A DNA stretch of 64,000 nt from an uncultured bacterium (GCA_963727715.1 CAVSGX010000004.1:8455-72454), one strand, 5' to 3'; numbered from the stretch's first letter, positions 3,420-54,427 are shown. Numbers and translations are program-made. The notes: generated by a model from the letters alone, not told the origin.

Positions 3420-3440
3420 TGAATAACTGAGCCAACACAT

Positions 3441-3476
3441 ACAAAAAATACCGCCTAGGCGGTATTTTTTGTTTTG
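3441..3476. terminator. Bidirectional rho-independent terminator between convergent genes
   Basis: Hairpin 'aataccgcctaggcggtatt' has an A-tract on one side and a T-tract on the other. It lies between the HTH gene end (3419) and the gatB end (3486). Confidence 0.6.
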
Positions 3477-3485
3477 TCATTTGTC

Positions 3486-4910
3486 TTACTTATTCAATAT
3501 TTCCAAGATGATCTTTTTCAAAATCTCCGGGTTAGCGCTACCTTTGCTTGCTTTCATCCCCTGCCCCACAAAAAACTGCAGAACCGATTCTTTACCGGAT
3601 TTATAATCGGCAACCACTTTTGGGTTTTCTAAAATTATTTCTTTTATTATTTTATTTAATTCTTCTGAATCATTTTTCTGAATTAAATTTTTCTCTTTGA
3701 CAATTTGTTCTGGCTTCCCACCAGATTCAAACATCATTTTCAAAATATCTTTGACCCCGCGAGAAGAAATATTTCCTTTCTTTTGCATTAAAATAAGTTG
3801 TTTAAAAGTAGTCGGAGTCACTTTACCGAAATCAAAATTACTTTCTCCAAAAGATTTTGAAAGACCCAATAAGTCGGATGTAATGTAGTTTGAAAAAGTT
3901 TGTAAAATATTTTTATCGGATATTCCTGTGGTTGCCTCTTCAAAAAACGTCGCTACTTTCGGGTTGTTGATGTAGACTTCCACATCTTCTTTTTTCAACC
4001 CTAAATCAGTCTCAAATCTTTTTCTTTTTTGCCATGGCAGTTCCGGCAATTCAGCTTTTAATTTTGCAATAGAAAATTCCGGTATTTCTGAAATGATTAA
4101 TTTTGGCAGATCCGGTTCCGGAAAATATCTGTAATCATGAGCAGATTCTTTTGATCGTTGGGAAAAAGTAATGCCTTTATTTTCATCAAAACCGCGAGTT
4201 TCTTGAACGACTTTTTCTCCCCTCTGAAGAAGAGATTTCTGTCTTTCAAATTCATATTCCACAGCCCGGCCTGCAGACCTAAAAGAGTTTATATTTTTAA
4301 CCTCTACTTTTGTGCCGAAAATATCAGAGTTTGAAATGGAAATATTTACTTCCACTCGCATTTCACCTTTTTCCATATTGGCGTCGGAAACTTGTAGGTA
4401 CTGTAGAAGCAATTGTAATTCTTGAGCAAACTTCATCACCTCTTCGGCTGAATGAATAACCGGTTCAGTTACCAGTTCTAGGAGTGGCACGCCGGCTCTG
4501 TTGTAGTCTACCAAACTGATATCCTTTGTATCGTGACTGGACCTGGCTGTATCTTCTTCAAGGTGGACGCGAGTCAACTTCACCCCGCATAGTCCCCCAC
4601 CGGAAACCAAAGGATATTTATACTGGCTGATTTGATAGCCTTTCGGTATATCCGGATAAAAATAATTCTTGCGATCAAACTCGGTAAAATCAGCCAAGTC
4701 GCTGCCGAGAGCTACGCCAACAAGCAAAACTTTTTTGACCGCCGATTTATTTATAACCGGCAAGGTGCCGGGATAACCCATACATATCGGACAAATATTT
4801 ATATTAGGTTCTTTCTCGTCCGGCACATTCAGACAACCACAAAACATCTTGGTTTTTGTCTTCAGTTCGGCGTGAATTTCCAGCCCAATAGTTATTTTGT
4901 AATCCTCCAT
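3486..4910 (-). CDS. gatB: Asp-tRNA(Asn)/Glu-tRNA(Gln) amidotransferase subunit B
   Basis: The N-terminus 'YKITIGLEIHAELKTKTKMFCGC' and the overall length are typical of GatB. Confidence 0.9.
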   Translation of the reverse strand: MEDYKITIGLEIHAELKTKTKMFCGCLNVPDEKEPNINICPICMGYPGTLPVINKSAVKKVLLVGVALGSDLADFTEFDRKNYFYPDIPKGYQISQYKYPLVSGGGLCGVKLTRVHLEEDTARSSHDTKDISLVDYNRAGVPLLELVTEPVIHSAEEVMKFAQELQLLLQYLQVSDANMEKGEMRVEVNISISNSDIFGTKVEVKNINSFRSAGRAVEYEFERQKSLLQRGEKVVQETRGFDENKGITFSQRSKESAHDYRYFPEPDLPKLIISEIPEFSIAKLKAELPELPWQKRKRFETDLGLKKEDVEVYINNPKVATFFEEATTGISDKNILQTFSNYITSDLLGLSKSFGESNFDFGKVTPTTFKQLILMQKKGNISSRGVKDILKMMFESGGKPEQIVKEKNLIQKNDSEELNKIIKEIILENPKVVADYKSGKESVLQFFVGQGMKASKGSANPEILKKIILEILNK

Positions 4911-35626: not shown

Positions 35627-36645
35627 ATTTGCGAGTAAATATCTACGAATTGTTGGGCGATTTCATCCCAAGAATGACCGTGGGAACTCAAGAGAATATT
35701 TCTTTTATAATTTTGATATATTTCCGGCTCAAGTAAAATCTCCACATTACGGACCAAATCATCAACCGAAAAAGGATTGGTAAATACTACCATACCTTTC
35801 AGTTTTTCAAACATACCATTATCGGAAGTCAAAATGACTGGCAAATCAAAACGAATGGCATCACAAACCAAATTCGGGCTAACTTCCGAAAAAGAATTGA
35901 TAATAATGGCGTAAGATTTGGAAATTTTTTCCAAAAGAACTTCGTGGGAAACTTGATTTGTGTCCAAGATCAGATCTGGATGTTTCTGTTTGATTCTGCG
36001 GAAAGCTTCCGCCAATCTTTTTTTATTTTTTATAACAATGTCGCGAGACGGAGATAGAAATATTTTCTGCTCGATATTCTGGGCGACGGGCATTTCCGGC
36101 ATAGGAAAAAAATTCTCTATAATTTTTGTTTTGTTTAAATTCAAGTTGTACGACTCTTTCATAATATTTCTTTGCCATTCGGTACTGAAAATAACCATGT
36201 CAGCCGAGTGTAAAACAAACTTGGTGGTATTGAAAATAATCTTCTCTTTCAAAGAAAACTCGCGAGGAGTTTGATAGAAATGTGAAAGTAAAATTTCTTT
36301 TTTGGTTCTCTCAACAAAAGATTCCCATAAAAAATCTCCACCCACTCTTAAAACCATTTTTTTGCCAAGCAATTTGCTAAAAATGAGTGTCGGTAAACCA
36401 ACACTAAAAGAGTCCAGAGCAATGATATAGTCGGCAAAAAGAGCATCAAAAAATAGTTTGACAAAATAAAAAAAATGGCGAACTCCTGTGGGAAATTTTT
36501 TCAATTCACCATAAGTGACAACCGAGACATTATATTTTTGGATTAAAAATGAATTAAAAAGCTCCTTGGCATATCCCGCCGGACCGCCTATTTCCGGAGG
36601 GTAAATACCTGTTGCTATGACAATATTTTCCGGTATTTTGTTCAT
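35623..36645 (-). CDS. Glycosyltransferase (GT-B, GT4-like)
   Basis: Size, glycan-locus context and 'GIYPPEIGGPAGY' N-terminal GT-B motif. Confidence 0.5.
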   Translation of the reverse strand: MNKIPENIVIATGIYPPEIGGPAGYAKELFNSFLIQKYNVSVVTYGELKKFPTGVRHFFYFVKLFFDALFADYIIALDSFSVGLPTLIFSKLLGKKMVLRVGGDFLWESFVERTKKEILLSHFYQTPREFSLKEKIIFNTTKFVLHSADMVIFSTEWQRNIMKESYNLNLNKTKIIENFFPMPEMPVAQNIEQKIFLSPSRDIVIKNKKRLAEAFRRIKQKHPDLILDTNQVSHEVLLEKISKSYAIIINSFSEVSPNLVCDAIRFDLPVILTSDNGMFEKLKGMVVFTNPFSVDDLVRNVEILLEPEIYQNYKRNILLSSHGHSWDEIAQQFVDIYSQI

Positions 36646-36654
36646 ATCCCATAA

Positions 36655-38508
36655 TCAATGCTGTTCAGGTTTATTTTTATCAATTGTGTCGTCCACATTA
36701 AGCACTTTACGCAAAACCTCTTCCGGCACTTCTTTCCCCGACGCTGGCGCGGCTGGGGTTTGGACGATTTCTTTTTTAATTCCGGGTTTTATTTCCGTTT
36801 TTATTTCCGGTTTATTCATAACTTGAGACAGAGCATTTTTCAAACTGGAAATATTTTCCACTGTCGGATTTTTTTTATTTTCACTTGAATTCAGAGTAGA
36901 TAATGAAGCTGTTTGCGCAGTTGGAGGATTCTTATTTGAATCTACTGGTTTTCTCTGCGAAAAAGATTTGTTGCGCAAATCTTCGGTGGCTTTTATAAAA
37001 GCCAACTTATTAGGATCAGGGGTTGCAATTGTTGGAGTATTGTTCTGGTTGTTATATTTCTCTTTCTCACTGAAAGGCTTGTTAAAAATCGGACGATTGT
37101 CGACGCTTCGCTGAGGAGATGCCGGCGCAGATAAGGGCATAGGCGAAAAGCTGGAACGTCCTGTTCCTATATTTCCGTCGCCTTGCCCACCACCAGCCAT
37201 TTTGTCTCTTTGGGCCGATGTCCCCTCTTCATGCCATTTTTTTATTTCTGCCTCGACTTCGCCCCGTGGTCGGGTAAACTGTTTCCACGAGCTTTCCATA
37301 ACTTCTTTTTTGAATGAGACATCCGGCCTAGTAATCGGTGGCATAGTGACAGCTGAAAACGGCGCTGAAGAAACTTCATCGATCATCAATTTCAAATAAA
37401 TTTGGTATTTGCCAAGATTGACCAAATCTTCGGCGGTGAAAGTTGGAGCGAATTCTTTTTCCAAAACTTCAGCATCAAAAGCGCCGACTCGAAATGTGAC
37501 CATGGTGCCAACGTTGCCGAAAACGGCGTCGCGCACTTCCTCTTCCATTTGCTCAATGTACTGATGTGTGATGTTTAAACCTAATTTGTACTTGCGGGCT
37601 TCGGACAAAATGTCGGCAAAAGATTTGTTGGCGAAAGATTGAAACTCGTCCACATACAAATAAAAATTCGGCAGTTTGGCTAATTGCTCTTTGTTTTTGT
37701 CCGCTCGAGACATGGCCGCCAAGTATATTTTTGTGATAAGCATTGAACCAATGAGGTTGGCATTGCCCTCACCAACAAGCCCTTTGGACAAGTTGATGAG
37801 CAATATCTTTTTCTCATCCATAAAATCGCGAATGTCAAAAGATGATTTCGGCTGGCCGATTAAATTTCGGACAAGCGGGTTTGATGTGAATTGTCCGACT
37901 TTGTTTTGAATAGCCGGTGTGGCTTCGGCTGCGTATTTGTCGGTGTATTTGGCAAATTCCTCCGTCCAAAAAGTTTTGACCGATGGATCTTTGATGTTCT
38001 CCACCACTTTTTTGCGATACTCTTTGTCAGCTAACATTCGATTAACACCAAGAAGTGTGGCACCCGGATATTCCAAGAGCGCCAAAAGAGTGTTGTTTAA
38101 AATGTAAGCCATGCGAGCTGACCAAGCATCCACCCAGATTTTCTCAAACGTGGACATGAGGCCGTTGACCACCAGATGTCTTTTGTCCACACCAATATCT
38201 TCCAAGACATTGAAAGAAACTGGATGTTCCAAATCAAATGGCGCGAAATAAAGCACATCTTTGATGCGATTTTCCGGGATGTAATCCAGCAGTTTTTCGG
38301 CCATTGAACCGTGCGGATCTATGACGGCGATACCGTTGCCATTTTGAATATCCTGGATGGCCATATTTTCCAAAAGATTGGACTTGCCAACGCCGGTTTT
38401 GCCGATAACATAAACATGACGCAAGCGATCGCTTTCTTTGATACCAAAACGGATTTTTTTGTTGCGAGCGTCCGTTTCGGCAAAATATGTGATGGGGTTT
38501 GGGTCCAT
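36655..38508 (-). CDS. Type IV secretion/conjugation coupling-protein-like ATPase (VirD4/TraG/TraD-like, TrwB-type ATPase domain) with low-complexity C-terminal tail
   Basis: Walker A 'VIGKTGVGKSNLL', 'VIDPHG', and 'YLYVDEFQSF'. Confidence 0.6.
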   Translation of the reverse strand: MDPNPITYFAETDARNKKIRFGIKESDRLRHVYVIGKTGVGKSNLLENMAIQDIQNGNGIAVIDPHGSMAEKLLDYIPENRIKDVLYFAPFDLEHPVSFNVLEDIGVDKRHLVVNGLMSTFEKIWVDAWSARMAYILNNTLLALLEYPGATLLGVNRMLADKEYRKKVVENIKDPSVKTFWTEEFAKYTDKYAAEATPAIQNKVGQFTSNPLVRNLIGQPKSSFDIRDFMDEKKILLINLSKGLVGEGNANLIGSMLITKIYLAAMSRADKNKEQLAKLPNFYLYVDEFQSFANKSFADILSEARKYKLGLNITHQYIEQMEEEVRDAVFGNVGTMVTFRVGAFDAEVLEKEFAPTFTAEDLVNLGKYQIYLKLMIDEVSSAPFSAVTMPPITRPDVSFKKEVMESSWKQFTRPRGEVEAEIKKWHEEGTSAQRDKMAGGGQGDGNIGTGRSSFSPMPLSAPASPQRSVDNRPIFNKPFSEKEKYNNQNNTPTIATPDPNKLAFIKATEDLRNKSFSQRKPVDSNKNPPTAQTASLSTLNSSENKKNPTVENISSLKNALSQVMNKPEIKTEIKPGIKKEIVQTPAAPASGKEVPEEVLRKVLNVDDTIDKNKPEQH

Positions 38509-38660
38509 AATCGTTTATTATTATATCACAGATGATTAAAATCCAAACCACTAAAAGCTCGCCTGATTTTGCTCCGCAAAATCAGAAAGTAAAGAAAAAT
38601 TCAAAATTCAAAAACAAAAGAAAAAACAAATCGACAAGAGACAAGCTACCTTTTTGGAAA

Positions 38661-39650
38661 TCACAAGAACGAGCGGGAGAGGCGACCACCCAGAGGCGGA
38701 TGGGAACTGGACGGAGCATCGGCACGGACACCGAGCCGGGAACCGGCGGGGTTCCAATAGGCGCAGACGACACGAAAGGAAGATGGGGCGGTTTTGTCAG
38801 GGTTTGGCACTTTAGACCCGGGCAAAGCGGTCCAGTAGTATAGACCATCTTTCTCGTTTTTGGTGTCTATGTGCTTGCCTGTTTGTTCAAAGATTTTTCT
38901 TTGCAGGATGAGATAATCGGACAGAGTTAGAGATTGGTTCGGAGGCAAGGAGAGAAAGGTTTCAATCTTTTTGTTCAGAGTTTGTTTAAGCTCTGATTGT
39001 TGCCAGAGTTCTTGACTGTGGACTAGAACGATTCTTCTTTTTTTGTCTTCTATTACTCCTTCAAACCCGCCACCCGAGTTGAAATTGCTTCCGGTGTATG
39101 TTTCGTTGTATCCTTCCGACATTTTAGCGTTTAGGTCTGTCAGGTTTGGCAGAGTTTCCGGAATGAGCAGGATTGTGTCAAAACCGTGTTTTTCTATTTC
39201 TTCTCTGATTTGGTCAATGTTTCTTTCCCAGATGTTTTTCATCGTCTCGGAGAAGTCTTTCGGTCTGTCTATGGAGTGGGTTGTGTAAAAGGAAGTAAAG
39301 TATTCTATTTCTTTTTCAATATCTATGGTTATGGTTTCTTTCTTTTCTTCAGTGGTTGTTTTGCCGGTTTTTTCGTCTTTTGTCTCTTCGATATGTTTGT
39401 ATTCCACTTCTAGAGTTGTTGAGGATTTGCCTTCTATCTTTCTTTTGAGAGAACGGCATTGGGAGAGTGTTTCTTTGATTTTCAGGCTTAGTTCTTTCTG
39501 TTTCTCTGTATCTCCGCTCTCAATGGCTTTTAGGAGTTTATCTTTCATTTCTTCGGCCTGAGAGAGCAGGCCTTCCATTACGGTCAAGTCGGCCAGAGCT
39601 TGTTCTTTGGTTGGTGGAGAGTTTGGGATTTTGGGAGATTCGTGGGACAT
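38661..39650 (-). CDS. DGR target protein 1 (C-type-lectin-fold-like C-terminus carrying VR1)
   Basis: C-terminus 'GFRVVCAYWNPAGSRLGVRADAPSSSHPPLGGRLSRSFL'. About 97% nucleotide identity to the gene at 40671..41660, except in the variable repeat. Confidence 0.8.
   Translation of the reverse strand: MSHESPKIPNSPPTKEQALADLTVMEGLLSQAEEMKDKLLKAIESGDTEKQKELSLKIKETLSQCRSLKRKIEGKSSTTLEVEYKHIEETKDEKTGKTTTEEKKETITIDIEKEIEYFTSFYTTHSIDRPKDFSETMKNIWERNIDQIREEIEKHGFDTILLIPETLPNLTDLNAKMSEGYNETYTGSNFNSGGGFEGVIEDKKRRIVLVHSQELWQQSELKQTLNKKIETFLSLPPNQSLTLSDYLILQRKIFEQTGKHIDTKNEKDGLYYWTALPGSKVPNPDKTAPSSFRVVCAYWNPAGSRLGVRADAPSSSHPPLGGRLSRSFL
38673..38771 (-). repeat. DGR variable repeat VR1
   Basis: It aligns to the template repeat at 43071-43177. 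All but one difference fall at template-repeat adenines (coding sense). Confidence 0.8.
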
Positions 39651-39666
39651 AATGGATGGATGATAA

Positions 39667-40347
39667 TCAGTCTAATTTTATTAATTTCTTTGTCAGAACA
39701 GGAATTTCTTTTTGAAAAAAAGTTTTGACCGAATTCCAATCAGCGTCAAAAAAGATGACCGGCTCTGGATCGCTTTCGGCATCGTCAAAATAAACCATAC
39801 TTTTCAAGATATGGTGATAGTCGTGAGCCACAGACGGATACTGTCCCGGCAATCGTCTGATAATATTTTCCAGCGGTTCCACATTTTTGGCGCACCAGTA
39901 CAAATCAAAGAAATCTCTTTTTCTGCCTCTTTGCGAGCTGGCGATTATTTTCATCACGGCCACATCCGTTTTATTCAAAATTTTGACAAAACCGTATTCC
40001 AAAAATTTTTGTTTTGGAATAAAAAACGGATAAGCGATAAAACTGATTTTGGTGTCATACAATACGCCATATAAAGTGTTTGGTTCATCAATATCCGTGC
40101 TCCAATTTTCATTGCTTGCAAAACGAGATAACAGTTTCTTTGTTATAAAACTTTTTTCTGTGGTAAAAAAATCCAAATCAACAGATTTGCGATTGCCGGC
40201 CTGCAAAGCTAAGGCGGTGCCACCGGCCAGATACCAGCCTGATTCACTCAGCCATTCTTGGGTTGATAAAAAATCCAGAGCTGTTTTGGTTGATTTGGGT
40301 AAACATGAAAAGTTGATGATATTTAATTTTGAAGTGTCAGTGTCCAT
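39667..40347 (-). CDS. Nucleotidyltransferase AbiEii/AbiGii toxin-family protein
   Basis: 'WYLAGGTALALQAGNRKSVDLDFF'. Confidence 0.7.
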   Translation of the reverse strand: MDTDTSKLNIINFSCLPKSTKTALDFLSTQEWLSESGWYLAGGTALALQAGNRKSVDLDFFTTEKSFITKKLLSRFASNENWSTDIDEPNTLYGVLYDTKISFIAYPFFIPKQKFLEYGFVKILNKTDVAVMKIIASSQRGRKRDFFDLYWCAKNVEPLENIIRRLPGQYPSVAHDYHHILKSMVYFDDAESDPEPVIFFDADWNSVKTFFQKEIPVLTKKLIKLD

Positions 40348-40547
40348 AATGCTTTTGTTCTTGGTCTCAAAGACCGTGATGCAGAAACAACTTTTCTCAA
40401 CAATGCCTTGTCATAAAAATTCCAAAGCCAGCGAACCTCATTATCCCTGCCAAAATCTAAAATTCTCTCAATTATATATTGAGCGTTTTTTTCAGTGTCA
40501 ATTCTGCTGACATCGGTGTCCCAAAACAAAGATTGTCTAAATGGCAT
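40323..40547 (-). CDS. Small conserved partner protein of the AbiEii-like nucleotidyltransferase (putative antitoxin-like)
   Basis: Overlaps the AbiEii start by 25 nt. 'LFWDTDVSRIDTEKNAQYIIERILDFG...WLWNFY...SRSLRPRT' pattern. Confidence 0.45.
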   Translation of the reverse strand: MPFRQSLFWDTDVSRIDTEKNAQYIIERILDFGRDNEVRWLWNFYDKALLRKVVSASRSLRPRTKALWTLTLQN

Positions 40548-40670
40548 ACCTTCATTATATCAAATTTTGAGACAATATTCAACAAAAATCAAAATGCAAA
40601 AATAAAAAATTCAAAATTCAAAAACAAAAGAAAAAACAAATCGACAAGAGACAAGCTACCTTTTTGGAAA

Positions 40671-41660
40671 TCACAAGAACGAGCGGGAGAGGCGACCACC
40701 CAGAGGCGGATTGGAAATGGACGGATCATTGGCAACGACATTGAGCTGGGAACCGTCGGGGTACCAATGGGCGCAGACGACACGAAAGGAAGATGGGGCG
40801 GTTTTGTCAGGGTTTGGCACTTTAGACCCGGGCAAAGCGGTCCAGTAGTATAGACCATCTTTCTCGTTTTTGGTGTCTATGTGCTTGCCTGTTTGTTCAA
40901 AGATTTTTCTTTGCAGGATGAGATAATCGGACAGAGTTAGAGATTGGTTCGGAGGCAAGGAGAGAAAGGTTTCAATCTTTTTGTTCAGAGTTTGTTTAAG
41001 CTCTGATTGTTGCCAGAGTTCTTGACTGTGGACTAGAACGATTCTTCTTTTTTTGTCTTCTATTACTCCTTCAAACCCGCCACCCGAGTTGAAATTGCTT
41101 CCGGTGTATGTTTCGTTGTATCCTTCCGACATTTTAGCGTTTAGGTCTGTCAGGTTTGGCAGAGTTTCCGGAATGAGCAGGATTGTGTCAAAACCGTGTT
41201 TTTCTATTTCTTCTCTGATTTGGTCAATGTTTCTTTCCCAGATGTTTTTCATCGTCTCGGAGAAGTCTTTCGGTCTGTCTATGGAGTGGGTTGTGTAAAA
41301 GGAAGTAAAGTATTCTATTTCTTTTTCAATATCTATGGTTATGGTTTCTTTCTTTTCTTCAGTGGTTGTTTTGCCGGTTTTTTCGTCTTTTGTCTCTTCG
41401 ATATGTTTGTATTCCACTTCTAGAGTTGTTGAGGATTTGCCTTCTATCTTTCTTTTGAGAGAACGGCATTGGGAGAGTGTTTCTTTGATTTTCAGGCTTA
41501 GTTCTTTCTGTTTCTCTGTATCTCCGCTCTCAATGGCTTTTAGGAGTTTATCTTTCATTTCTTCGGCCTGAGAGAGCAGGCCTTCCATTACGGTCAAGTC
41601 GGCCAGAGCTTGTTCTTTGGTTGGTGGAGAGTTTGGGATTTTGGGAGATTCGTGGGACAT
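40671..41660 (-). CDS. DGR target protein 2 (tandem paralog of target 1, carrying VR2)
   Basis: The 329-aa protein is identical to target 1 until the C-terminal ~30 aa ('VVCAHWYPDGSQLNVVANDPSISNPPLGGRLSRSFL'). Confidence 0.8.
   Translation of the reverse strand: MSHESPKIPNSPPTKEQALADLTVMEGLLSQAEEMKDKLLKAIESGDTEKQKELSLKIKETLSQCRSLKRKIEGKSSTTLEVEYKHIEETKDEKTGKTTTEEKKETITIDIEKEIEYFTSFYTTHSIDRPKDFSETMKNIWERNIDQIREEIEKHGFDTILLIPETLPNLTDLNAKMSEGYNETYTGSNFNSGGGFEGVIEDKKRRIVLVHSQELWQQSELKQTLNKKIETFLSLPPNQSLTLSDYLILQRKIFEQTGKHIDTKNEKDGLYYWTALPGSKVPNPDKTAPSSFRVVCAHWYPDGSQLNVVANDPSISNPPLGGRLSRSFL
40683..40781 (-). repeat. DGR variable repeat VR2
   Basis: All but one difference from the template repeat fall at template-repeat adenines. 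Confidence 0.8.
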
Positions 41661-41672
41661 GGAAGTATTCTA

Positions 41673-42700
41673 TCATGTTATAACAATATCATTCAATATT
41701 GAAGTCAGTTTGTTTTTTAATCCAAATGAATCGCAGTGTTTCAGTAAAGCAAAATAAGACTGAAAATTATTCTTGTTCATTCTTTCAAAAATTTTTTGCT
41801 TGGTTTTATCTCTCAATAAAAGACAATCTGGCAAAGTCAGAGATCCTAGAAAATCTACTCCCCATTTTAATTTTCTGATTGAGATTTTATCATCCGGGAT
41901 TTGCAGAAACAGTTTTGCCATAAATTTTTTAATTTCAACCAAACAAAACCCCAATCTTTTTTTATTTTTATTTACCAAAATAAAATCGTCGTTGTATCTT
42001 ATATAAAATCTGGCGTTTAATTTTTTCTTCACAAAATGGTCAAAATCGTTCAAATAAATGTTGGCGAAAATCTGGCTGGTGATGTTGCCGAGCGGGATGC
42101 TTTTGTCAGAGCCATGAAGCGAGCAAAAACTTTCTACTATTTTCCCCACTTCCAAAAAAATATTTTCATTTTTCACTTTTCTTTTGATAAATTTCAGCAG
42201 TAGGCGGTGGTTGACACTTTCAAAGTATTTTTTGACATCGCATTTTAAAATAAAAACATCCCCATTTTTTCTTTTCGCCAATCCATTGAAATATTGGAGA
42301 GTTTTGACGGCTTTATGCGTTCCTTTTCCGTCTCTGGATGAATAACGGCTTTATGCGTTCCTTTTCCGTCTCTGGATGAATATGAGTCGGCAATAAATGC
42401 CGGCTCAAATAGATTTTTCAAATAATCGGATATTATTTGATGAATAATTCTATCTTTAACTTCAGCTTTGTGAATATTTCTTTTCTTGTTGTCAGTAACA
42501 ATAAAATGCGAATACCCGCCATGGCGGTAAGTTTTGTTTTTCAGATCTCTGTGCAAATCAAAAATATTGTCTTCCAAATGTCTTTCAAAAATCATTACAT
42601 CCATCTTGGAGGACTTTCCCCGCCGAAATTTCCGCCAAGCTGAAAATATATTATCAAGACTGAATAATTCGTTATAATTTTTATGGAACAAGACGCTCAT
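41673..42700 (-). pseudogene. DGR reverse transcriptase, frameshifted by a 38-bp tandem duplication (split into ORFs 42245..43024 and 41673..42281)
   Basis: 'RNIHKAEVKDRIIHQ', 'FIADSYSSRDGKGTHKAV', 'ILKCDVKKYFESVNH', the DGR-specific 'IPLGNITSQIFANIYL', and 'YIRYNDDFILV'. Deleting one 38-nt copy restores a single frame ('...HKAVKTLQYFNGLAKRKNGDVFILKCDV...'). Confidence 0.8.
42307..42382. repeat. Perfect 2 x 38-bp tandem duplication inside the RT gene
   Basis: 'acggctttatgcgttccttttccgtctctggatgaata' appears twice in tandem. Confidence 0.85.
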
Positions 42701-43057
42701 AAAATTGAAAAATTGGAAATGCCTATTATGGCCAAACTCTTTATCATTTACGAACTGACGCACAAGCTTATTTTCAAATTGCCGAAATTTGAAAGATACA
42801 CTTTGGGTGAAAAAATTGAAAATATCATCTTGGAAACGATTGAAATAATTGTCATCGCCAATGGGACGAACAAATACGAAAAAGAAAAATATTTGCTCAA
42901 AGCCAATGCCAAAGTGGAAATGCTTAAGTTGCTTTTTCGCATCGTTTTGAACTGCCAAATCATTGATTTCAAAAAATATTTGGAGGCGGAAGGGTTGCTT
43001 CAAGAAATCGGCAAAATGGCGCAAGGTTGGATAAAATACACCAGAAACGCAAAATAG
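42683..43057 (+). CDS. avd: Avd-like accessory variability determinant (four-helix-bundle / 23S-rRNA-IVS protein family)
   Basis: 'KLPKFERYTLGEKIENI...KANAKVEMLKLLFRIVLN...LQEIGKMAQGWIKY'. It sits on the opposite strand to the RT and the targets. Confidence 0.7.
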   Translation: MEQDAHKIEKLEMPIMAKLFIIYELTHKLIFKLPKFERYTLGEKIENIILETIEIIVIANGTNKYEKEKYLLKANAKVEMLKLLFRIVLNCQIIDFKKYLEAEGLLQEIGKMAQGWIKYTRNAK

Positions 43058-43070
43058 CTTTTGTATAAAG

Positions 43071-43177
43071 CAAGAACGGCGGGAGAGGCGACAACCCAGA
43101 TTCGGATTGGAATTGGACGGATCATTGGCATTGACATTGAGCTGGGAATTGTCGGGGTTCCAATTGGCGCAGACGAC
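43071..43177 (-). repeat. DGR template repeat (TR), non-coding, coding-sense on the minus strand
   Basis: It carries AAT/AAC at every position that varies in VR1-3, and lies directly next to avd and the RT. Homology to each variable repeat begins across the region matching the target stop codon. Confidence 0.8.
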
Positions 43178-43484
43178 TGCGGTCGCCCCTCGATTAGCTT
43201 TGCGTCGTCATTTCCGTTTGGAAACAAGACTCTATTTATTAGGGGCTACTTCCCCCTGACGCAAAACTGCTGTTCTTGTGTTTTATTTCCACAAATCAAC
43301 GACTATTTGGTTTCTAAAATTCAGAAACCATCTTTCGCCGTCAATTAGCGCTTCGGCAAACCAACTCATCACTGATGGCTTACGAGCCGAAGCGGGCGAT
43401 TTTTGCTTCGCAAAAATAAAAAATTCAAAATTCAAAAACAAAAGAAAAAACAAATCGACAAGAGACAAGCTACCTTTTTGGAAA

Positions 43485-45512
43485 TCACAAGAACGAGCGG
43501 GAGAGGCGACAACCCAGATTCGGATAGGAATAGGACGGATCATCGGCACCGACAACGAGCTGGGAATAGCCGGGGTCCCAATGGGCGCAGACGACGCGGA
43601 AACCGCCGGATGGATTTTTGACTGTTGAGCCGGGTAGCCATGTCCAACCGTCTTCATCCAAATGTTTGCCTGTTTGTTCAAAATATTGCTTTTGATACAA
43701 CAAATAATCTGTCAGAGACATTTTTTCACCTTGCGATATAAACTCCTCGGCTTTTTTATTCAGAGTTTTCTTCAGTTCCGAATGGTCTTTCAGATTTTGA
43801 GCGCTGTTTTTATGAATCAAAACGATTCTTCTTTTTTTGTCTTCTATTACTCCTTCAAACCCGCCACCCGAGTCGAAATTGCTTCCGGTGTATGTTTCGT
43901 TGTATCCTTCTGACATTTTTTTATGTATATCGGTTATGGTCAATCCTCCGGGCACAAGCAAAATCTCATCAAAACCATATTTTTCTACTTCTTGTTTTAT
44001 CTCGTCATAATTGTTCACCCATATATCCGCCATTTCTTCCGCAAATGATTCCGTCAATTCAATTTCGTGAGCTTTATAAAAAAGAAGAGAATCCTCAAGT
44101 TTTTTGTCAAAATTTATTTCTATTTTCTCTTTCTTTTCTTTGCCTTTCTCGTCCACGATTTTGTGTTCGGCAGAAACCACCGGTTCAAACGAACTGCCGG
44201 TCAATTCTCTTCTTTTACTTCTGAAAAATTTCTCCAAATCGGCTATTTCATTTTCAATCTTCTCTATCCCGTCCGCCGGACTTTCGGTTTTACCACCTTC
44301 AGGAATTGCCTCAGCAGACGCTTCTTTTTCTTCTTCGTTATTTTTCTTTTTTCTTTTCGTTCCTTTGCGTTTGGAATCTTTGGTTTCTATTTTGACTTCA
44401 ACCAATCGGATGATTTCTTCCAATTTTGTTCTGTCTTCGGCGCTTTCCAGTCTGTTGACATAATAATATTTCAGGGCTTTTTGAAAAGTTTCGCTGATGT
44501 CGCCATTGTAAAAACGCAAAACAAAATTTCTGACCCGCCTCGGCTCTTCGCGGTCGTCATAGGTGAAAACTTGTGGTTGATCTTCGGCGATTTGCCTGTT
44601 TTTCAAAAGTTCTTTGGCGGTTTTGTGAAATTCCTTGTATTTTTCCAAAATTTCGGCAATGCCTGGAATTTCCGAAAGTTGTTCCTGCGTCAAACCACCG
44701 GCGCCGGATAAAAACATATCATCAGGCAATTCGGCGGTTTTCTTTTCCAAACCGTTCTCTAAACCAAACAATGCACCAGTCGCTTGCTTAAAGGTCTCTT
44801 CCGGTAATTCATTTGGCATTTTTTTATAAACCCATCTGCGAAGCTGAGCTGGATCAAGTGGCTTTCTATCCAAATAACCGGCTCCCGGAGGATTCATAAA
44901 AGCGATGATTTTGGTTTTTTGTTTAGAAACTTTAACTGTTTCCGAAGCGTCTTCTGACAAAATGACATCGCTATCACGCTCCAGAGAATCCAAAACTTCA
45001 TGCAAACGAATCAAAATGTTCGGCGCCGATGAGTTGAATTCGTCCAAAACAATAATTTTGACTTTACCGTCTTCCTGTCGTAAACCGCTAGTTACTTTTC
45101 CGTCGGCGAAAATGTATTCCGGGTCTTCCGCATTATTTTTACGAGGATTTGGTATATATCGGCCCATCAAATCCTCCACATCCGTGGCACCGTTTAAGTT
45201 TATGTAATGAACTTCGTAGCCGAGCTCACTGGCCATTTTTCGCACCGTGGTGGTCTTACCAAAAGATGTTCCGCTTTCCACGGCAATAGGGTCGCCCATG
45301 GAAAACGACACGGCGATGTCACGTTGCAGTGGCAGAGCCACTTCGGTATCATTGGTGTAGTCCTTGTAATTTTCTCTTCTTGGCACAAATTGGCCATTTC
45401 TGTTTTTAGCTTTTTCCAGAGTAACACCCATATAAGAAACACTCCCGTCAGTTTCCATTATCGGCTCCAGTTTTGCTTCCGGATTGTTAAATTGTCCTTC
45501 TGGTGTTTTCAT
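43485..45512 (-). CDS. DGR target protein 3: MoxR-like AAA+ ATPase N-terminal domain fused to the shared C-terminal lectin-like domain with VR3
   Basis: 'ESGTSFGKTTTVRKMASELGYEVHYINL' (Walker A) and 'IIVLDEFNSS' (Walker B). The C-terminal 150 aa are homologous to targets 1 and 2 ('GFRVVCAHWDPGYSQLVVGADDPSYSYPNLGCRLSRSFL'). Confidence 0.8.
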   Translation of the reverse strand: MKTPEGQFNNPEAKLEPIMETDGSVSYMGVTLEKAKNRNGQFVPRRENYKDYTNDTEVALPLQRDIAVSFSMGDPIAVESGTSFGKTTTVRKMASELGYEVHYINLNGATDVEDLMGRYIPNPRKNNAEDPEYIFADGKVTSGLRQEDGKVKIIVLDEFNSSAPNILIRLHEVLDSLERDSDVILSEDASETVKVSKQKTKIIAFMNPPGAGYLDRKPLDPAQLRRWVYKKMPNELPEETFKQATGALFGLENGLEKKTAELPDDMFLSGAGGLTQEQLSEIPGIAEILEKYKEFHKTAKELLKNRQIAEDQPQVFTYDDREEPRRVRNFVLRFYNGDISETFQKALKYYYVNRLESAEDRTKLEEIIRLVEVKIETKDSKRKGTKRKKKNNEEEKEASAEAIPEGGKTESPADGIEKIENEIADLEKFFRSKRRELTGSSFEPVVSAEHKIVDEKGKEKKEKIEINFDKKLEDSLLFYKAHEIELTESFAEEMADIWVNNYDEIKQEVEKYGFDEILLVPGGLTITDIHKKMSEGYNETYTGSNFDSGGGFEGVIEDKKRRIVLIHKNSAQNLKDHSELKKTLNKKAEEFISQGEKMSLTDYLLYQKQYFEQTGKHLDEDGWTWLPGSTVKNPSGGFRVVCAHWDPGYSQLVVGADDPSYSYPNLGCRLSRSFL
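43497..43595 (-). repeat. DGR variable repeat VR3
   Basis: Every difference from the template repeat falls at a template-repeat adenine. Confidence 0.8.
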
Positions 45513-45515
45513 ATT

Positions 45516-45917
45516 TTATGAACGATAAACCGGCCCAACTTTGTCTATAATTTCAAAACTTCTTTCTTTCAATTTCGCCAAAACGCTTTCCGTAGCGACC
45601 AAAACCAAAACCTGACTTTGATAATCAGGTGAAAAAACTTTTGATTCATTTTTTTCTTTATCAAAAATCTCAACTTGACCTGTCGGATACTGCGCGACAA
45701 AATCATATAAGTCCTTCGGTAGATTTTCGTCCAAAACCAGATACATTTTTTGAAAACCAAAAAAATCAAAAACATTTTTTGATGTTTGAAATCCACTATC
45801 TTCAAAAAACTTGATAAAACCACCCATCTCGCTTTCATCCCGCGCCAAAACAAGTCCGACATCTTTTTGTCCTTTCAAGATATCCAGAAACTCATGCAGA
45901 CCTTCGTTTTTGTTCAT
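45516..45917 (-). CDS. Hypothetical protein
   Basis: 133-aa ORF between the vWA gene and the AAA-fused target gene. Confidence 0.4.
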   Translation of the reverse strand: MNKNEGLHEFLDILKGQKDVGLVLARDESEMGGFIKFFEDSGFQTSKNVFDFFGFQKMYLVLDENLPKDLYDFVAQYPTGQVEIFDKEKNESKVFSPDYQSQVLVLVATESVLAKLKERSFEIIDKVGPVYRS

Positions 45918-45956
45918 AGTTGTATTCTAACACTAACCGGAAAATTATCAAATTTT

Positions 45957-48242
45957 TCAACCAACAACTTCTTTCTCAAGTATTTCTGATATATCTTTTA
46001 TTATTTTGTCCACTTTTATATTATCGGATTTTAGCGGGTAATAAATAAGCTTTACACCGCCGGCTTTTTCGATTTTGCCTTTAATTTTTTGAAAATCATA
46101 TTTTGAGCCGGGATGTTTAGTGGATTCAGCTGGTCTGTCATCCGAAAAAACAATCATTATTTTGTTGTCTGTTTTTTGTTTTGCAAGTCTTGCCGAAGCG
46201 GTTTCCATAGCCCAACCAATGTCGGTTTCATTATGCTCATTTCCGCAATTTTTGCAACAACTATCTTCAACCTCTTTAAACATTCCTCCCATGTGTTCCC
46301 TGATTTTTTTTGACATTGGCTCTCCAAATTTTTGATACTCGTATATATCATCATTAAAACCGTTAATTTCAACGTTCAATCCTAGTTTGTTTAATGCTTC
46401 AGCCAGCACAACTTTTGCTTTGAAATCTTCTTCAATTTTTTTACGCATAGAACCAGATAAATCGTTTAGAATGGAAATTGAATATTCTTTTTCATCTGGT
46501 TTTTCTCTTTTTTGCCAAGCGTTGCTTTCTATTGGCGAAATGCGTCTGGCTTTTTCCTGAATCCTTGTTTTTATATCAATTCTTTTGCCTATTCTAAAGC
46601 CCTTTTTCCATCTTGTGGTTTGGGTGTCAACAAATATCTGTCTTAGTTTATTTTCCAATTCATCAATCAGCGACGAAACTTCTCGTCGGTGCTTTTCATA
46701 AATATTTTCGTCTTTATTGACTTCTCTTTTTAATCTTTCTTTGTATATTCTCAATCCTTCCAAATCAAGAGGTTCTTTTCTTAAAGTTCCGGTTCTGACC
46801 GGAGCGCCGCCTTGATTTTGATTGTTTATTTCAACCCCTGGCAAATTTTCCGGCGGTTCTGGATTTTTTCTTTCTGCTTTTTCCTCCGGATTTTCAGTCA
46901 ATTTGCCTTCCATTTCTTCGTTTAGTTTGTCTTCAAATTCCTTCAGCGCTTTTTCGGCTCTGTCGGCCAGCTCTTTTTTCACATCTTCCGGAAGCGAGTC
47001 GACATAATCCCTTATTTTTTGTTTTATTTCGTCGGAAAGGTCGTTCAGGTTTATTGTCCTCGCACCGATATCGTCTAGCGTCTGTGGTTGTTCATTGCCG
47101 GTGTTGTCTTCGTGTGGAGTCGGCTTGTTTGTGATTTTATCTTCTCCCTGCCCACCTGTTGACATTGGTTTGATTTTTTCTTTCTCTTTTTTTGCTTCAT
47201 CAATAGCTTTGTCAATAGCATTTTCCAACGTTTTCTTTTCTTCTTCGGTTAATTTGTCTTCCAAATCTTTTGGCAGTTTTGATTTTTTTTCATTTTTTTT
47301 ATCTTCACTTTCTCCTTCCTGATTTCCGTTATCTTTTTGTCCATCACCACCTTCCTTCCCATTTTCTCTTTCTTGCTCTTTTTTCATTTCTTCCATCATC
47401 TTTTTCATCACATCTTTCAACACTTCTTCCATTTTCTCATCCTCTTTATCTGCTTCAACCAGTTTTTTAAATTCTGGCCAAATTTCTTCCAGATTTATTT
47501 CATACGACACTTTGGCGTATTCTTTTATTTTTTCTTCACTTTCATCCGCTTCCTCTCGCGACGGATATCGCCACCAAGAATCCTGAGCTGATTTCAGTGT
47601 GGCTAAAACAACAGCTTTGACTTCTTCGGGCAAATCTTCCGAAATTTCAAAATTCTGTCCCTGTTTTTCACGAAACCATTGTCTAATATATTCATACCCC
47701 GCTTGCACAAAACGCGGTTGGAAACCCAGTTTTTCGGTAGCTTCTTTCTTTTCTTTTTCTCTTTTGGCAAAAAAATCATCCCAAGCAAATTTTATATTTT
47801 CATCGTATTTCGGATAACTCTCGGAAACAAAGTTGTCGTTTCTGGGATCTTCAATGAAATTCATCATAGCTGAAAAGCCCGGTTGTCGCCATGTTTCAAT
47901 CGGAATAAAATCTGTTCTGGAAACTCGTCTATGTCCTCCTTCGTGACAAATTAAATATCTCAATAATTCAATTGGCTCCGTCAGCAGAGTTTTCGGGTCA
48001 ACTCTGATGACATTTTTTTGAAAATCCCAATGCCAGCCAGCGCCTGGTTGGTTTAGTTCTATCGGCATCTCAAAATCTTTGCCAATAAAATAAGCCAGAG
48101 ATGACAAAATATTTTTCTTGCGCAGAATTTCTTTTTGTTCTTCTTCGTTAAATCGCTTCAAGATTTCCTCTTCTGGATTTTGCCGGAGAGAATCGTAGGT
48201 TTGTTCGTTTTGATTGAATTTTGGTCCTTCCATAATTTGCAA
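45957..48242 (-). CDS. vWA-domain protein with N-terminal HExxH metallopeptidase-like motif and long acidic coiled-coil linker (MoxR partner)
   Basis: MIDAS motif 'ILNDLSGSM' in a C-terminal vWA fold. 'LICHEGGHRR' and an E/K-rich low-complexity middle. Confidence 0.6.
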   Translation of the reverse strand: MQIMEGPKFNQNEQTYDSLRQNPEEEILKRFNEEEQKEILRKKNILSSLAYFIGKDFEMPIELNQPGAGWHWDFQKNVIRVDPKTLLTEPIELLRYLICHEGGHRRVSRTDFIPIETWRQPGFSAMMNFIEDPRNDNFVSESYPKYDENIKFAWDDFFAKREKEKKEATEKLGFQPRFVQAGYEYIRQWFREKQGQNFEISEDLPEEVKAVVLATLKSAQDSWWRYPSREEADESEEKIKEYAKVSYEINLEEIWPEFKKLVEADKEDEKMEEVLKDVMKKMMEEMKKEQERENGKEGGDGQKDNGNQEGESEDKKNEKKSKLPKDLEDKLTEEEKKTLENAIDKAIDEAKKEKEKIKPMSTGGQGEDKITNKPTPHEDNTGNEQPQTLDDIGARTINLNDLSDEIKQKIRDYVDSLPEDVKKELADRAEKALKEFEDKLNEEMEGKLTENPEEKAERKNPEPPENLPGVEINNQNQGGAPVRTGTLRKEPLDLEGLRIYKERLKREVNKDENIYEKHRREVSSLIDELENKLRQIFVDTQTTRWKKGFRIGKRIDIKTRIQEKARRISPIESNAWQKREKPDEKEYSISILNDLSGSMRKKIEEDFKAKVVLAEALNKLGLNVEINGFNDDIYEYQKFGEPMSKKIREHMGGMFKEVEDSCCKNCGNEHNETDIGWAMETASARLAKQKTDNKIMIVFSDDRPAESTKHPGSKYDFQKIKGKIEKAGGVKLIYYPLKSDNIKVDKIIKDISEILEKEVVG

Positions 48243-51558: not shown

Positions 51559-52596
51559 TCAACTGATTTGCAAGTTTGGCAAAAGTTCCCTGTCTCGCTC
51601 CGTTTCTTCAATAATTTTTGCCATATCTGCCACTACTTCCAAGGGGTACTTGCCAACGGCCGTTTCTTCGGAGAGCATGACTGCTTCAGCGCCATCCAAA
51701 ACGGCATTGGCCACATCAGAAACTTCGGCCCGAGTCGGTCTTTCGTTTTCCACCATTGATTCCATCATTTGAGTGGCGATGATTGTCGGTTTACTGACCT
51801 CGTTGCATTTTCCGGTGATCATTTTTTGAACGAACGGCACTTTTTCAAAAGGAATCTCCACGGCCAAGTCTCCGCGAGCCACCATTATGGAGTCCGAAGC
51901 GGAAATAATTTCGTCTATGTTCTCCACAGCTTGTGGTGTTTCTATTTTGGCGATGATTTTAGCTTGGCACCCGCGCTCTTCTAGAATTTTCCGTAATCCT
52001 AAAATATCCGAAGCTCTGCGAACAAAAGATACGGCCACAAAATCAACTTTGTTTTTTATACCGAACTCCAAACTGGCCAAATCTTTTTCGGTCAGAGCAT
52101 TAACCGAAAGTTCCGAGCCAGGCAGGTTGAGCCCCTTTCTGCTTTTGACTTCCCCGCCGATTAAAACTTTGCAGACGACATCATTGTCTTTGATTCCCGA
52201 GACTTCCAATTTTATTCTGCCATCGTCAATATAAATAAAATCGCCCGGAGAAACTTCTTTCGGCAAGAATGGGTAATTGACCGAAACACGGTTTTGGTCG
52301 CCTTGGCACTGGTCCGTGGTCAGAGTAAACATTTTTCCTTCTTTCAAACAAACAGTGTCGGATCCGAAATTGCCGATGCGGATTTTTGGCCCGGGCAAAT
52401 CCTGAATGACCCCGGCGACAATGCCGGTGTTTTTTACAGCTGTTTGAATATTGTCAAAGCGTTTTTGTTGCTCATCTATATCGGCTTGAGAAAAGTTGAG
52501 ACGAAAAATATTAGCTCCAGCTTTGAGCAATTCTTCAAGCATCTCCACATCTCTGGTTGATGGACCAATGGTGACAATAATTTTAGTTTTTCTCAT
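51559..52596 (-). CDS. pyk: Pyruvate kinase (compact form; start at internal Met of the longer ORF)
   Basis: '[36 protein letters not shown]'. Confidence 0.85.
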
Positions 52597-52672
52597 TACA
52601 AATATAATACAGGAAAACGGGAAGAAAGAGAAATGGAAATAATCTGTTTTACACAAAACAAAAGCCAGTTGT

Positions 52673-53281: not shown

Positions 53282-54296
53282 CTTTGAAGTAGGACAGTTA
53301 GAATTAATGCATTAGTCGAAAATTAATTTTAATTGTCATATGAAAAACAAATATCATCATTTGTCTTTTGAAGAGAGGTTTTGTATTGAAAAGATGTATT
53401 GCGCCGGTTCGGCCATTCGCAAAATTGCCGAATTTCTCGGTCGGAGTGTCAACACTGTGAGCAGAGAAATACAAAAACACAGTGTTAATGGGGTGTATGA
53501 AGCGGAAAAAGCCAAGCAGAAAGTTTCAATGAAAAGATGGCGAGCCAAACAGCAGTGTCTGAAAGTGGCGCTTGACCCGTTTCTCTGTCGATTCGTGGTG
53601 GAACGATTAACCAAGCCGTATCATTGGTCGCCGAAGCAGATTAGCGGGTATCTTGAATGTGAAATGGGTATCATCTGCTCGGCCAAAGCCATATACAAAT
53701 TTGCCGAGTCGAGAGGTCTAAACCACCTGCTTTTTTGGGGTTGGAACAATCACAAGGGTGGGAGAAAACGAAATCATTGGAAGCACATTCAGGATGGCAG
53801 GAAGTATATTGATGTCAGACCGGAGAGAAAAGGTCTAGGACACATTGAGCTCGATTTCATCGTTTCCAAAGACAGTTCGTGGGTACTTTTGGTTGCTGTG
53901 GATTGGCAAGCCAAAAGAACATGGGTCAGGAAACTGCCCAACAGAAAACGCGACACTATTCGTGCCGCGCTTTCCCGTCTGTTCCATGGTGTTGAATTGA
54001 AGAGCATCACCACAGACAACGATATTGCATTCACCTGTTGGAAAGAGTTGGAAACTCTCCTGCAAGTGCCAATCTATTTTACACATCCATACCATTCTTG
54101 GGAAAAAGGTCTGGTGGAAAACACCAACAGATGGATCAGATGTTTTGTGCCTAAACGAAGAGATATTGAGTCAGTCACTGAGGAAGAATTGCAAGAAATA
54201 CATTCCTTCCTAAACAACCGACCGAGAGAAGTGATTGGCTTCCGCGCGCCAATGAGTTATTATTCAAACATTAGTTCTGTCCTACTTGAGGGGTAA
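53281..54296 (+). mobile_element. IS30-family insertion sequence
   Basis: Terminal inverted repeats of ~17 bp ('AAGTAGGACAG', at 53287-53297 and inverted at 54277-54287) flank a single transposase ORF. Confidence 0.7.
53340..54296 (+). CDS. IS30-family DDE transposase
   Basis: N-terminal HTH 'IRKIAEFLGRSVNTVSREI' and 'HSWEKGLVENTNRWIRCFVPKRRDI'. Confidence 0.85.
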   Translation: MKNKYHHLSFEERFCIEKMYCAGSAIRKIAEFLGRSVNTVSREIQKHSVNGVYEAEKAKQKVSMKRWRAKQQCLKVALDPFLCRFVVERLTKPYHWSPKQISGYLECEMGIICSAKAIYKFAESRGLNHLLFWGWNNHKGGRKRNHWKHIQDGRKYIDVRPERKGLGHIELDFIVSKDSSWVLLVAVDWQAKRTWVRKLPNRKRDTIRAALSRLFHGVELKSITTDNDIAFTCWKELETLLQVPIYFTHPYHSWEKGLVENTNRWIRCFVPKRRDIESVTEEELQEIHSFLNNRPREVIGFRAPMSYYSNISSVLLEG

Positions 54297-54353
54297 TTGG
54301 AGGACACACCTCCATTAAATAAAATATCACAATAAAATAATAAAGTCAAATTG

Positions 54354-54427
54354 TGCGCGTGCCAGGACTCGAACCTGGGACCTCGTCATTATCAGTGACG
54401 TGCTCTAGCCACCTGAGCTACACGCGC
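54354..54427 (-). tRNA. tRNA-Ile (anticodon GAT), no encoded CCA
   Basis: Minus-strand 'GCGCGTGTAGCTCAGGTGGCTAGAGCACGTCACTGATAATGACGAGGTCCCAGGTTCGAGTCCTGGCACGCGCA' forms a cloverleaf with anticodon loop CUGAUAA. Confidence 0.9.

Follow-up and report, generated by a model that had tools for sequence, protein, structure and literature searches.

A 64,000-nt stretch of DNA from an uncultured bacterium (GCA_963727715.1 CAVSGX010000004.1:8455-72454; hereafter the window, with positions counted from its first letter) carries a diversity-generating retroelement (DGR) in which three target genes end in variable repeats (VRs) that differ from a single non-coding template repeat (TR) almost exclusively at template adenines, and in which a perfect 38-nt tandem duplication interrupts the adjacent reverse transcriptase (RT) gene. 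We are confident that the locus is a chromosomal DGR of the type found in the Candidate Phyla Radiation (CPR)/Patescibacteria, with the gene order target-TR-(avd)-RT-target-X-target, and in all likelihood it is a real and recently active element whose RT is disabled in the sequenced genotype. What we observed directly comprises the repeat pattern, the protein identities, the lectin fold of the targets, the frameshift, the synteny in relatives and a covarying RNA. An initial annotation of the sequence had already proposed a DGR, and that interpretation survives on the strength of the adenine-specific repeats, the Avd profiles and the DGR-type RT. It had missed the split of the RT, the location of avd on the opposite strand and the covarying RNA upstream of the TR.

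Template and variable repeats

A repeat search of positions 36000–48000 returned a four-member family of 99-nt repeats, at 38673–38771, 40683–40781, 43079–43177 and 43497–43595, all in the minus-strand sense. When the template adenines were replaced by N and at most one mismatch was allowed, exactly four copies were found in the 64-kb window and none in 100 shuffles, and the GC-rich element GTCGCCTCTCCCGC occurs in the whole window only in those four copies. The TR and VR positions given in the initial annotation proved right, the TR consisting of the 99-nt core and 8 nt past a 1-nt indel. The repeats and their flanks, with IMH standing for initiation of mutagenic homing, are as follows.

43071–43177, minus strand: TR; core 43079–43177, non-coding and intergenic, with 43071–43078 as an IMH*-like continuation
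38673–38771, minus strand: VR1, the last 33 codons of target gene T1 before SFL and the stop codon
40683–40781, minus strand: VR2, the last 33 codons of T2 before SFL and the stop codon
43497–43595, minus strand: VR3, the last 33 codons of T3 before SFL and the stop codon
43419–43496, and also 38595–38672 and 40605–40682, minus strand: VR 3' flank, with the last codons, the stop, the IMH-like part with an extra T, and a GTAGCTTGT motif

Comparison of the TR with the three VRs revealed 37 differences in all, 35 of which are at TR adenines. The bias holds in each copy, with 15 of 16 differences at A in VR1 (hypergeometric p = 4e-12), 9 of 10 in VR2 (p = 1.5e-6) and 11 of 11 in VR3 (p = 3e-9). 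Tabulated by template base, the substitutions are thus not spread over the four bases, which bears out the adenine-specific variation claimed earlier, including the claim that VR3 varies at template adenines only. The TR contains 21 adenines in 99 nt, and 17 of these are altered in at least one VR. Translated in the register of the VRs it reads VVCANWNPDNSQLNVNANDPSNSNPNLGCRLSR, and every one of the 21 adenines occupies codon position 1 or 2, in nine AAT/AAC codons and in GAC, CAG and GAT, a design that permits ~15^9 x 4^3 = 2.5e12 protein variants per target and no stop codons. The sole non-A change, which had also been noted before, is a T-to-G substitution at repeat position 85 (Cys to Gly; window positions 38687 and 40697) just 5' of the GC-rich element. 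It is present in both VR1 and VR2, and the two occurrences are counted as one event because VR1 and VR2 are duplicates of each other.

The flanks of the repeat, GTCGTCTGCGCC and GTCGCCTCTCCCGC, are invariant, as had been stated, except that the first G of the second flank as then written (GGTCGCC...) is the T/G site itself. Homology between TR and VRs runs 8 nt beyond the core, to 43071, past a 1-nt indel at which CCCGC is followed directly by CGTTCTT in the TR while the VRs have a T in between. The invariant GTCGCCTCTCCCGC is therefore followed by non-identical sequence, as in an IMH/IMH* pair, and the same indel is found in the related locus L002. By analogy, the 14-nt GC-rich GTCGCCTCTCCCGC and the indel that follows probably play the IMH/IMH* role, which would keep the transfer running from the TR to the VRs; the T missing from the TR lies in the part that would stay uncopied, which fits this distinction. 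A few bases past the target stop, the sequence GTAGCTTGT(N3)CTTG recurs in three species (in the window at 38640–38660, 40650–40670 and 43464–43484). The motif also stands after the VRs in the related loci L002 and L004, and it forms no significant hairpin.

A simpler account would make the four repeats ordinary paralogous sequence, the C-terminus of a gene family together with a pseudogene fragment, with no retroelement involved. The three targets are indeed paralogues, and a VWA protein of another related locus, L014, has a homologous C-terminal segment in which all four template bases are affected by differences from the TR. However, 35 of the 37 differences in the window are concentrated at positions with A in the non-coding copy, which make up 21% of the repeat, this copy is located between avd and a target, beside a DGR-type RT, and T1 and T2 show 12 differences in 99 nt and 0 in the other 957 nt. 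Paralogy is already contradicted by the base-specific pattern, and we give it virtually no credence.

Recent diversification of the target genes

The three targets are carried by the following genes.

38661–39650, minus strand: T1, open reading frame (ORF) of 329 aa carrying VR1; duplicates T2 over 38595–39650
40671–41660, minus strand: T2, ORF of 329 aa carrying VR2
43485–45512, minus strand: T3, 675 aa, with an N-terminal MoxR/CobS-like AAA_5 ATPase, a linker, a conserved domain and a C-terminal lectin-fold tip with VR3

The duplicate copies containing T1 and T2 (38595–39650 and 40605–41660) are 1056 bp long and extend from the ATG to 66 nt past the stop. Their 12 differences are all located in the VR, at adenine sites, and the remaining sequence is identical, the duplication or gene conversion having left no point mutation. 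Identity outside the VR combined with adenine-site differences inside it indicates that diversification was very recent, and that retrohoming has occurred at least once since the last duplication or gene conversion. The target-X-target layout is common to the relative species represented by L002 and L003, whose targets are only ~55% identical to those of the window, and each genome carries identical paralogues. The pattern is suggestive of concerted evolution, by gene conversion between target copies, with the caveat that the repeats of L002 were possibly collapsed by the assembler.

The reverse transcriptase is split by a 38-nt duplication

The RT gene and the duplication within it are arranged as follows.

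41673–42700, minus strand: DGR RT gene, frameshifted, in pieces 42245–42700 and 41673–42281/42344
42307–42382, no strand assigned: perfect 38-nt tandem duplication, 2 x ACGGCTTTATGCGTTCCTTTTCCGTCTCTGGATGAATA, with units 42307–42344 and 42345–42382

The frame shifts after RT motif 2, just past ...SYSSRDGKGTHKAV. The N-terminal piece stops at 42245, and the C-terminal piece, which carries LGNITSQ and YNDD, runs in another frame and ends at 41673. The two ORFs are now 152 aa and 202 aa long; deletion of one 38-nt unit yields a single ORF of 329 aa. This repaired RT matches RVT_1 (2e-22) and PHROG 1423 (1e-84). Among solved structures it is closest to the RT of the Bordetella phage DGR (8ub7, 6e-28), with group II intron RTs ranking behind. 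The motifs align to those of the phage enzyme (bRT) as IPLGNITSQ to IPIGSLTSQ, IPLGNITSQIFANIY to IPIGSLTSQLFANVY and YNDD to YMDD. The adjacent RT with a DGR-specific LGNxxSQ motif that the initial annotation described is thus of the DGR type, as its motif and closest solved relative indicate, but it is not intact.

The one-unit form of the window RT was not recovered elsewhere: an exact 28-mer scan gave 0 matches in genome and metagenome contig collections, and a protein search returned only a 202-aa fragment. That fragment (P0019) is also the only public protein record for the RT of this contig. No second RT that could act in trans is present in the 64-kb window.

If the duplication were an assembly or sequencing artefact, the RT would be intact and the DGR currently active. 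Repeats at this locus do trouble assemblers, the start of the L002 contig looks collapsed, and the duplication is seen at no other locus. Against this stands a separate Logan assembly (k=31) of run ERR11594402, in which contig L001 is 100% identical to 42353–43439 and starts with the last 30 nt (k-1) of the 38-nt unit. The assembly breaks exactly at this unit suffix, and such a branch in the graph needs the junction of unit end and unit start to be present in the reads. The public protein record, moreover, is likewise the split 202-aa fragment. The duplication is not simply the artefact of one assembler; both assemblies may derive from the same reads, which would leave room for an artefact of the library, and we hold an artefact of any of these kinds to be quite improbable.

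The duplication might instead be a reversible switch, with the mutator off in the two-unit and on in the one-unit state, which would limit the cost of constant hypermutation. Perfect tandem duplications collapse often, by slippage or recombination. The duplication at this locus is perfect and without secondary mutation, and neither half of the RT shows any other damage. T1 and T2, identical in all other respects, have different VRs, so that the RT worked very recently, and a mixture of alleles with one and with two units would be consistent with the de Bruijn branch at the unit. However, the duplication has been seen in one genotype only, whereas the five relatives examined at the DNA level have a single unit and an intact RT, there is no flanking microhomology or repeat-prone sequence at the site, and a fresh inactivating mutation would look identical. 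A switch is therefore unlikely in our judgement, and we favour a recently active DGR whose RT was inactivated in this genotype. For such an element, the RT duplication must be younger than the diversification of T1 and T2, or polymorphic, and diversification is probably off at present unless the duplication collapses or another RT acts in trans. The locus would then provide a natural 'before and after' case, in which diversification followed a mutation-free duplication or conversion and the mutator was then knocked out by a clean 38-bp duplication, and it could help to determine by what means and at what rate DGRs are silenced by their hosts, or whether hosts switch them off and on.

An inverted avd gene between TR and RT

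42683–43057, plus strand: avd, with the likely start Met13 at 42719; inverted relative to the TR, the RT and the targets

The Avd-like gene noted previously was confirmed by profile searches, with a score of 64.5 bits (1.4e-17) on Pfam bAvd, above the cut-off of 40, and a match to PHROG 3206, 'Avd protein of DGR' (2.5e-21). The gene lies between the TR (43177 to 43071, minus strand) and the RT (42700 to 41673, minus strand) on the opposite strand. This is architecture B3 of Wu et al. 2018, written 'TR-(avd)-RT' with parentheses for the reverse strand (PMC5758913). We had considered the inverted avd as a possible novelty and rejected it on the basis of that classification. The 5' end of avd is head-to-head with the RT start, with 0–36 nt between them, and hence the RT is probably cotranscribed with the TR through antisense avd. 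As read from the sequence, avd itself would be transcribed from a promoter inside the 5' coding region of the RT, where a 10/12 sigma-70-like match (42651–42678, plus strand) gives a slight hint of one.

Several observations weigh against the interpretation of the locus as a DGR of the usual kind. The RT ORF is broken, and the Avd protein scores 68.5 bits on NCBIfam DivGenRetAVD, under the cut-off of 80. A GC-rich hairpin or cruciform was sought 3' of the VRs, and DNA folds of the VR 3' flanks were no better than those of shuffles; such hairpins are found downstream of the VR in 34% of DGRs and are thus not universal (PMC5758913). Finally, the T-to-G change lies within the copied part of the repeat, where simple retrohoming gives no explanation for it. 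VR1 and VR2 also have CC in common at adenine sites 76–77, and the 3' ends of these two repeats may escape replacement or be under selection.

Relatives of the cassette

Related cassettes were identified in the following genomes and contigs.

L002/L006 (GCA_037134875.1): target, TR, avd(-), RT, target, DUF6922, AbiEii, target
L003, a second sample of the L002 species: order as in L002
L007 (GCA_964547445.1): same cassette order, with a 917-aa AAA_5 target upstream
L008: same cassette order, with an 18-nt overlap between the starts of avd and the RT, as in the window
L014: target, TR, avd(-), RT, VWA, target
P0006 contig: CobT-like VWA, 130 aa, AAA_5 677 aa, ..., avd(-), RT, target

The avd gene is inverted alike in L002, L003, L007, L008, L013, L014 and the P0006 contig. 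L002, L003, L007, L008 and L014 each carry the RT as a single uninterrupted ORF of 322–330 aa, and the RT called on the P0006 contig is shorter, at 294 aa. TR/VR differences fall on A in 12 of 12 cases in L002, 16 of 17 in L008, and 18 of 23 and 19 of 24 in L014. L003 and L002 are 99.67% identical over 3958 nt, and their 13 differences are all located in one VR, 12 of them at TR adenines.

Two further features of these relatives were observed. The 3' end of the L014 VWA gene (2799–4826) aligns at 4680–4840 with the L014 TR over ~100 nt, with 43 differences on all four bases, and looks like a lectin-type C-terminus that is not, or no longer, diversified. Positions 1–807 of L002 (the start of JBAXLH010000010.1) repeat the short target exactly, while L003 has a different AAA-type target sequence there; the start of the L002 contig is likely an assembly collapse or a chimera at the contig end.

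Proposed mechanism of diversification

We infer the retrohoming steps, like the IMH role, the cellular location of the targets and the off state, and for the former we draw on the Bordetella phage system (Handa et al., PMC6182149; bioRxiv 10.1101/2023.10.23.563531). By this analogy, a minus-strand transcript carrying the TR would be bound by an RT-Avd complex, and cDNA synthesis would start near the TR 3' end. The RT would misincorporate opposite template adenines, and the resulting cDNA would replace the homologous last 33 codons of the three genes, with the 3' boundary set by the GC-rich GTCGCCTCTCCCGC. In this way, 12 codons (9 AAY, GAC, CAG and GAT) at the tip of the lectin fold would be randomised without the creation of stop codons. 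The TR 3' end of the phage pairs with the spacer that follows the TR, and this pairing makes up the template:primer duplex.

A conserved structured RNA upstream of the TR

43178–43393, minus strand: conserved structured RNA, ~215 nt immediately 5' of the TR, with helices H1–H7

Across the window, L003/L007, L008 and L014, the ~300 nt that separate the T3 stop from the TR show stronger conservation than the proteins; L013 comes without the TR region and adds nothing to the RNA alignment. The region contains the invariant blocks GGCTCGTAAGCC, GGTTTGCC, AAGAACAGCAG and GAG(G/A)-GGCG, and a further invariant block, CAAGAACAGCAG, pairs with the TR 3' end. RNAalifold analysis of the four species gave a consensus of 52 pairs, in which 93% of cells are paired. 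Compensatory double changes occur in 23 of these pairs. Shuffles gave 8.1 +/- 2.3 such pairs, with none of 500 reaching 23, and sliding the partners by 1–3 columns gave 9 at most; the consensus structure was derived from the same four sequences used for counting. The best-supported helix is long-range and joins 43268–43258 with 43206–43196; 7 of its 11 pairs are changed on both sides in L014, where AGUUUUGCGUC/GACGCAAAGCU becomes AGUCGAAAGUU/AACUUUCGGCC. G-U pairs assign the structure to the TR-sense strand, on which 186 of 200 cells are paired vs 162 on the opposite strand. Single-sequence folds reproduce the helices in the window (z = -5.6) and in L014 (z = -3.2).

Two helices, obtained from a fold that includes the TR and downstream sequence, connect this RNA with the TR at 43071–43092. 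In the first, the invariant upstream CAAGAAC-A-GC pairs with GC-C-GUUCUUG of the TR 3' end, with two compensatory changes, at exactly the site where the TR differs from the VRs. The second joins the upstream GAGGGGCGAC to GUCGCCUCUC, the GC-rich TR end, and two of its pairs show compensatory changes. Both TR-contact helices stack on the covarying long-range helix. A weaker covarying helix is located inside antisense avd, and a contribution from downstream of the TR is therefore also conceivable.

A scan of positions 38000–46000 against Rfam (E <= 1) gave no match, and we found no published description of a covarying RNA upstream of the TR in the literature covered. A search of metagenome contigs with a two-block pattern of the RNA yielded nothing beyond L008 itself and a further copy of the L003 species. 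The same kind of scan in viral contigs gave 0 matches, and an RT-profile scan of viral contigs recovered 50 phage DGR RTs that, at 36% identity or less, belong to a different lineage.

With four sequences, the upstream RNA is a lead and not a result, and it may be the one new feature of this locus. We tentatively raise the possibility that the DGR RNA is permuted in the TR-(avd)-RT lineage, such that the structured RNA that grips the TR 3' end and positions or primes the cDNA lies 5' of the TR. If the upstream RNA were a true replacement of the phage spacer, the RNA scaffold of DGR reverse transcription could be rearranged, which would matter for DGR engineering and for computational TR finding.

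Target proteins and their neighbours

The N-terminus of T3 matches Pfam AAA_5 (5e-12), and its C-terminal ~220 aa align with the target family and are 56% identical to T1. T1, T2 and the C-terminal part of T3 have no match in Pfam or NCBIfam, including the FGE-sulfatase, DUF1566 and Mtd families. The target C-terminus is confidently modelled as a C-type-lectin/FGE-like fold, with TvpA, Mtd and TaqVP among its structural matches, and in this model the variable residues are displayed on that fold. The resemblance to a C-type-lectin/FGE-like scaffold suggested by the initial annotation is thus upheld at the level of the fold, but not by a sequence-family match. The family is rare, with 16 relatives among 5.8 billion proteins, and a single-protein search for related loci with the target domain retrieved only the L002 genome. 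Reading the targets by eye, we found no signal peptide and no hydrophobic N-terminal segment; for this reason the targets are probably cytoplasmic, and their variable lectin tips would probably bind intracellular ligands.

The genes that accompany the targets are listed below.

40323–40547, minus strand: DUF6922 protein (Pfam 1e-17)
39667–40347, minus strand: AbiEii-like nucleotidyltransferase (Pfam AbiEii 3e-14; PADLOC AbiEii)
45516–45917, minus strand: 133-aa protein, a conserved upstream partner of T3
45957–48242, minus strand: CobT-like VWA protein (Pfam CobT_C/VWA), the other conserved upstream partner of T3, with an HExxH-like motif, CHEGGH, near the N-terminus

The DUF6922 and AbiEii genes (39667–40547) form a pair of overlapping ORFs in a toxin-antitoxin-like layout, nested between T1 and T2, and the pair is nested alike in L002 (3756–4636) and L003. 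On the other side of the cassette, the CobT-like VWA protein and the ~130-aa protein recur beside an AAA_5 target or the RT in the P0006 contig, L013 and L014. In the P0006 contig, the trio of VWA, ~130-aa protein and AAA_5 target mirrors that formed in the window by 45957–48242, 45516–45917 and T3. This recurrence suggests a conserved AAA+/VWA module that is served by the DGR. Taken together, the rare targets, the AAA+/VWA module and the nested AbiEii-like pair hint at an intracellular sensing or conflict role in a minimal genome. PADLOC, run on the window, reported AbiEii, generic RT matches and one weak 'mads_8' match on T3, and assigned no known defence system.

Directly downstream of T1 and on the same strand, 36655–38508 encodes a 617-aa protein resembling type IV secretion coupling proteins (TraD/VirD4/TrwB-like, with a HerA-type ATPase domain).

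Genome setting and host

The window is chromosomal and includes glycosyltransferases, pyruvate kinase, DUF4015, an IS30-like transposase and one tRNA. The closest named relatives of its pyruvate kinase come from Minisyncoccota, Paceibacterota, Zambryskibacteria and similar groups, and on this sequence relationship the host is assigned to the CPR/Patescibacteria, as a small-genome, Parcubacteria-like bacterium.

The pyruvate kinase ORF (51559–52656) consists of the barrel domain only, without PK_C, as it does in its closest relatives (327–383 aa), while most CPR homologues are ~470 aa long and have PK_C. The IS30-like transposase (HTH_38 + rve; 53340–54427) adjoins the sole tRNA gene of the window, tRNA-Ile GAU (54353–54427).

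Comparison with known systems

Tens of thousands of DGRs are already known, and as a DGR this locus is one more catalogued example of the CPR type that leaves the general picture unchanged. DGRs of CPR/Patescibacteria have been described (Wu et al. 2018, PMC5758913; Paul et al. 2017, cited in PMC10907252), and elements with the layout and the target type of the window have already been catalogued (PMC5758913, PMC10907252). The CPR elements of architecture B3 (PMC5758913) likewise have avd on the reverse strand between TR and RT, a small RT (~327 aa), several targets with unrelated genes nested between them, one target being a fusion of a P-loop/AAA ATPase with a variable lectin-fold domain at the C-terminus, and a small-genome Parcubacteria-like host. 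The AAA-ATPase-CLec protein is reported to be the commonest target type in CPR (PMC10907252). Unlike these elements, the window has a frameshifted RT and a target family that is rare and has no Pfam match.

With the DGR of Bordetella phage BPP-1 (mtd-avd-TR-brt; bRT-Avd-RNA structures 8ub7–8ube) the window element shares adenine-specific transfer from TR to VR, an Avd protein, an RT with the (I/L)GxxxSQ motif, and a GC-rich element that closes the repeat on its 3' side and is directly followed by a TR/VR difference. In contrast to the phage system, it is chromosomal, has three targets rather than one, and lacks a hairpin 3' of the VR. Its avd is inverted, so that antisense avd is located 3' of the TR, where the phage has the cDNA-priming Sp spacer, and the conserved RNA pairing with the TR 3' end is found upstream of the TR.

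The targets also differ from those of the Treponema denticola TvpA/FGE-sulfatase type. They have no sequence-profile match to FGE-sulfatase, their VR consensus is RVVxAxWxP..L.V.A.DP..S...LGCRLSRSF, and, whereas the TvpA-type proteins are lipoproteins, they appear cytoplasmic, with a helical-hairpin or AAA+ N-terminus.

A further parallel is with the DGR-linked MoxR/vWA 'ternary conflict systems' (Dore et al. 2024, PMC10907252), in which a DGR target is likewise found beside MoxR-like AAA+ and VWA proteins and the variable lectin domain is the presumed ligand sensor. That study reports the CPR RT clade to be distinct from its clades 5A–5E (PMC10907252). In the window, unlike in those systems, no VMAP, peptidase or TIR effector was detected (Pfam, PADLOC), the ATPase itself carries the variable domain, and the VWA partner is CobT-like. 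What sets the present locus apart is the duplication that splits the RT, the very recent diversification, the rare and unannotated target family and the conserved RNA 5' of the TR.

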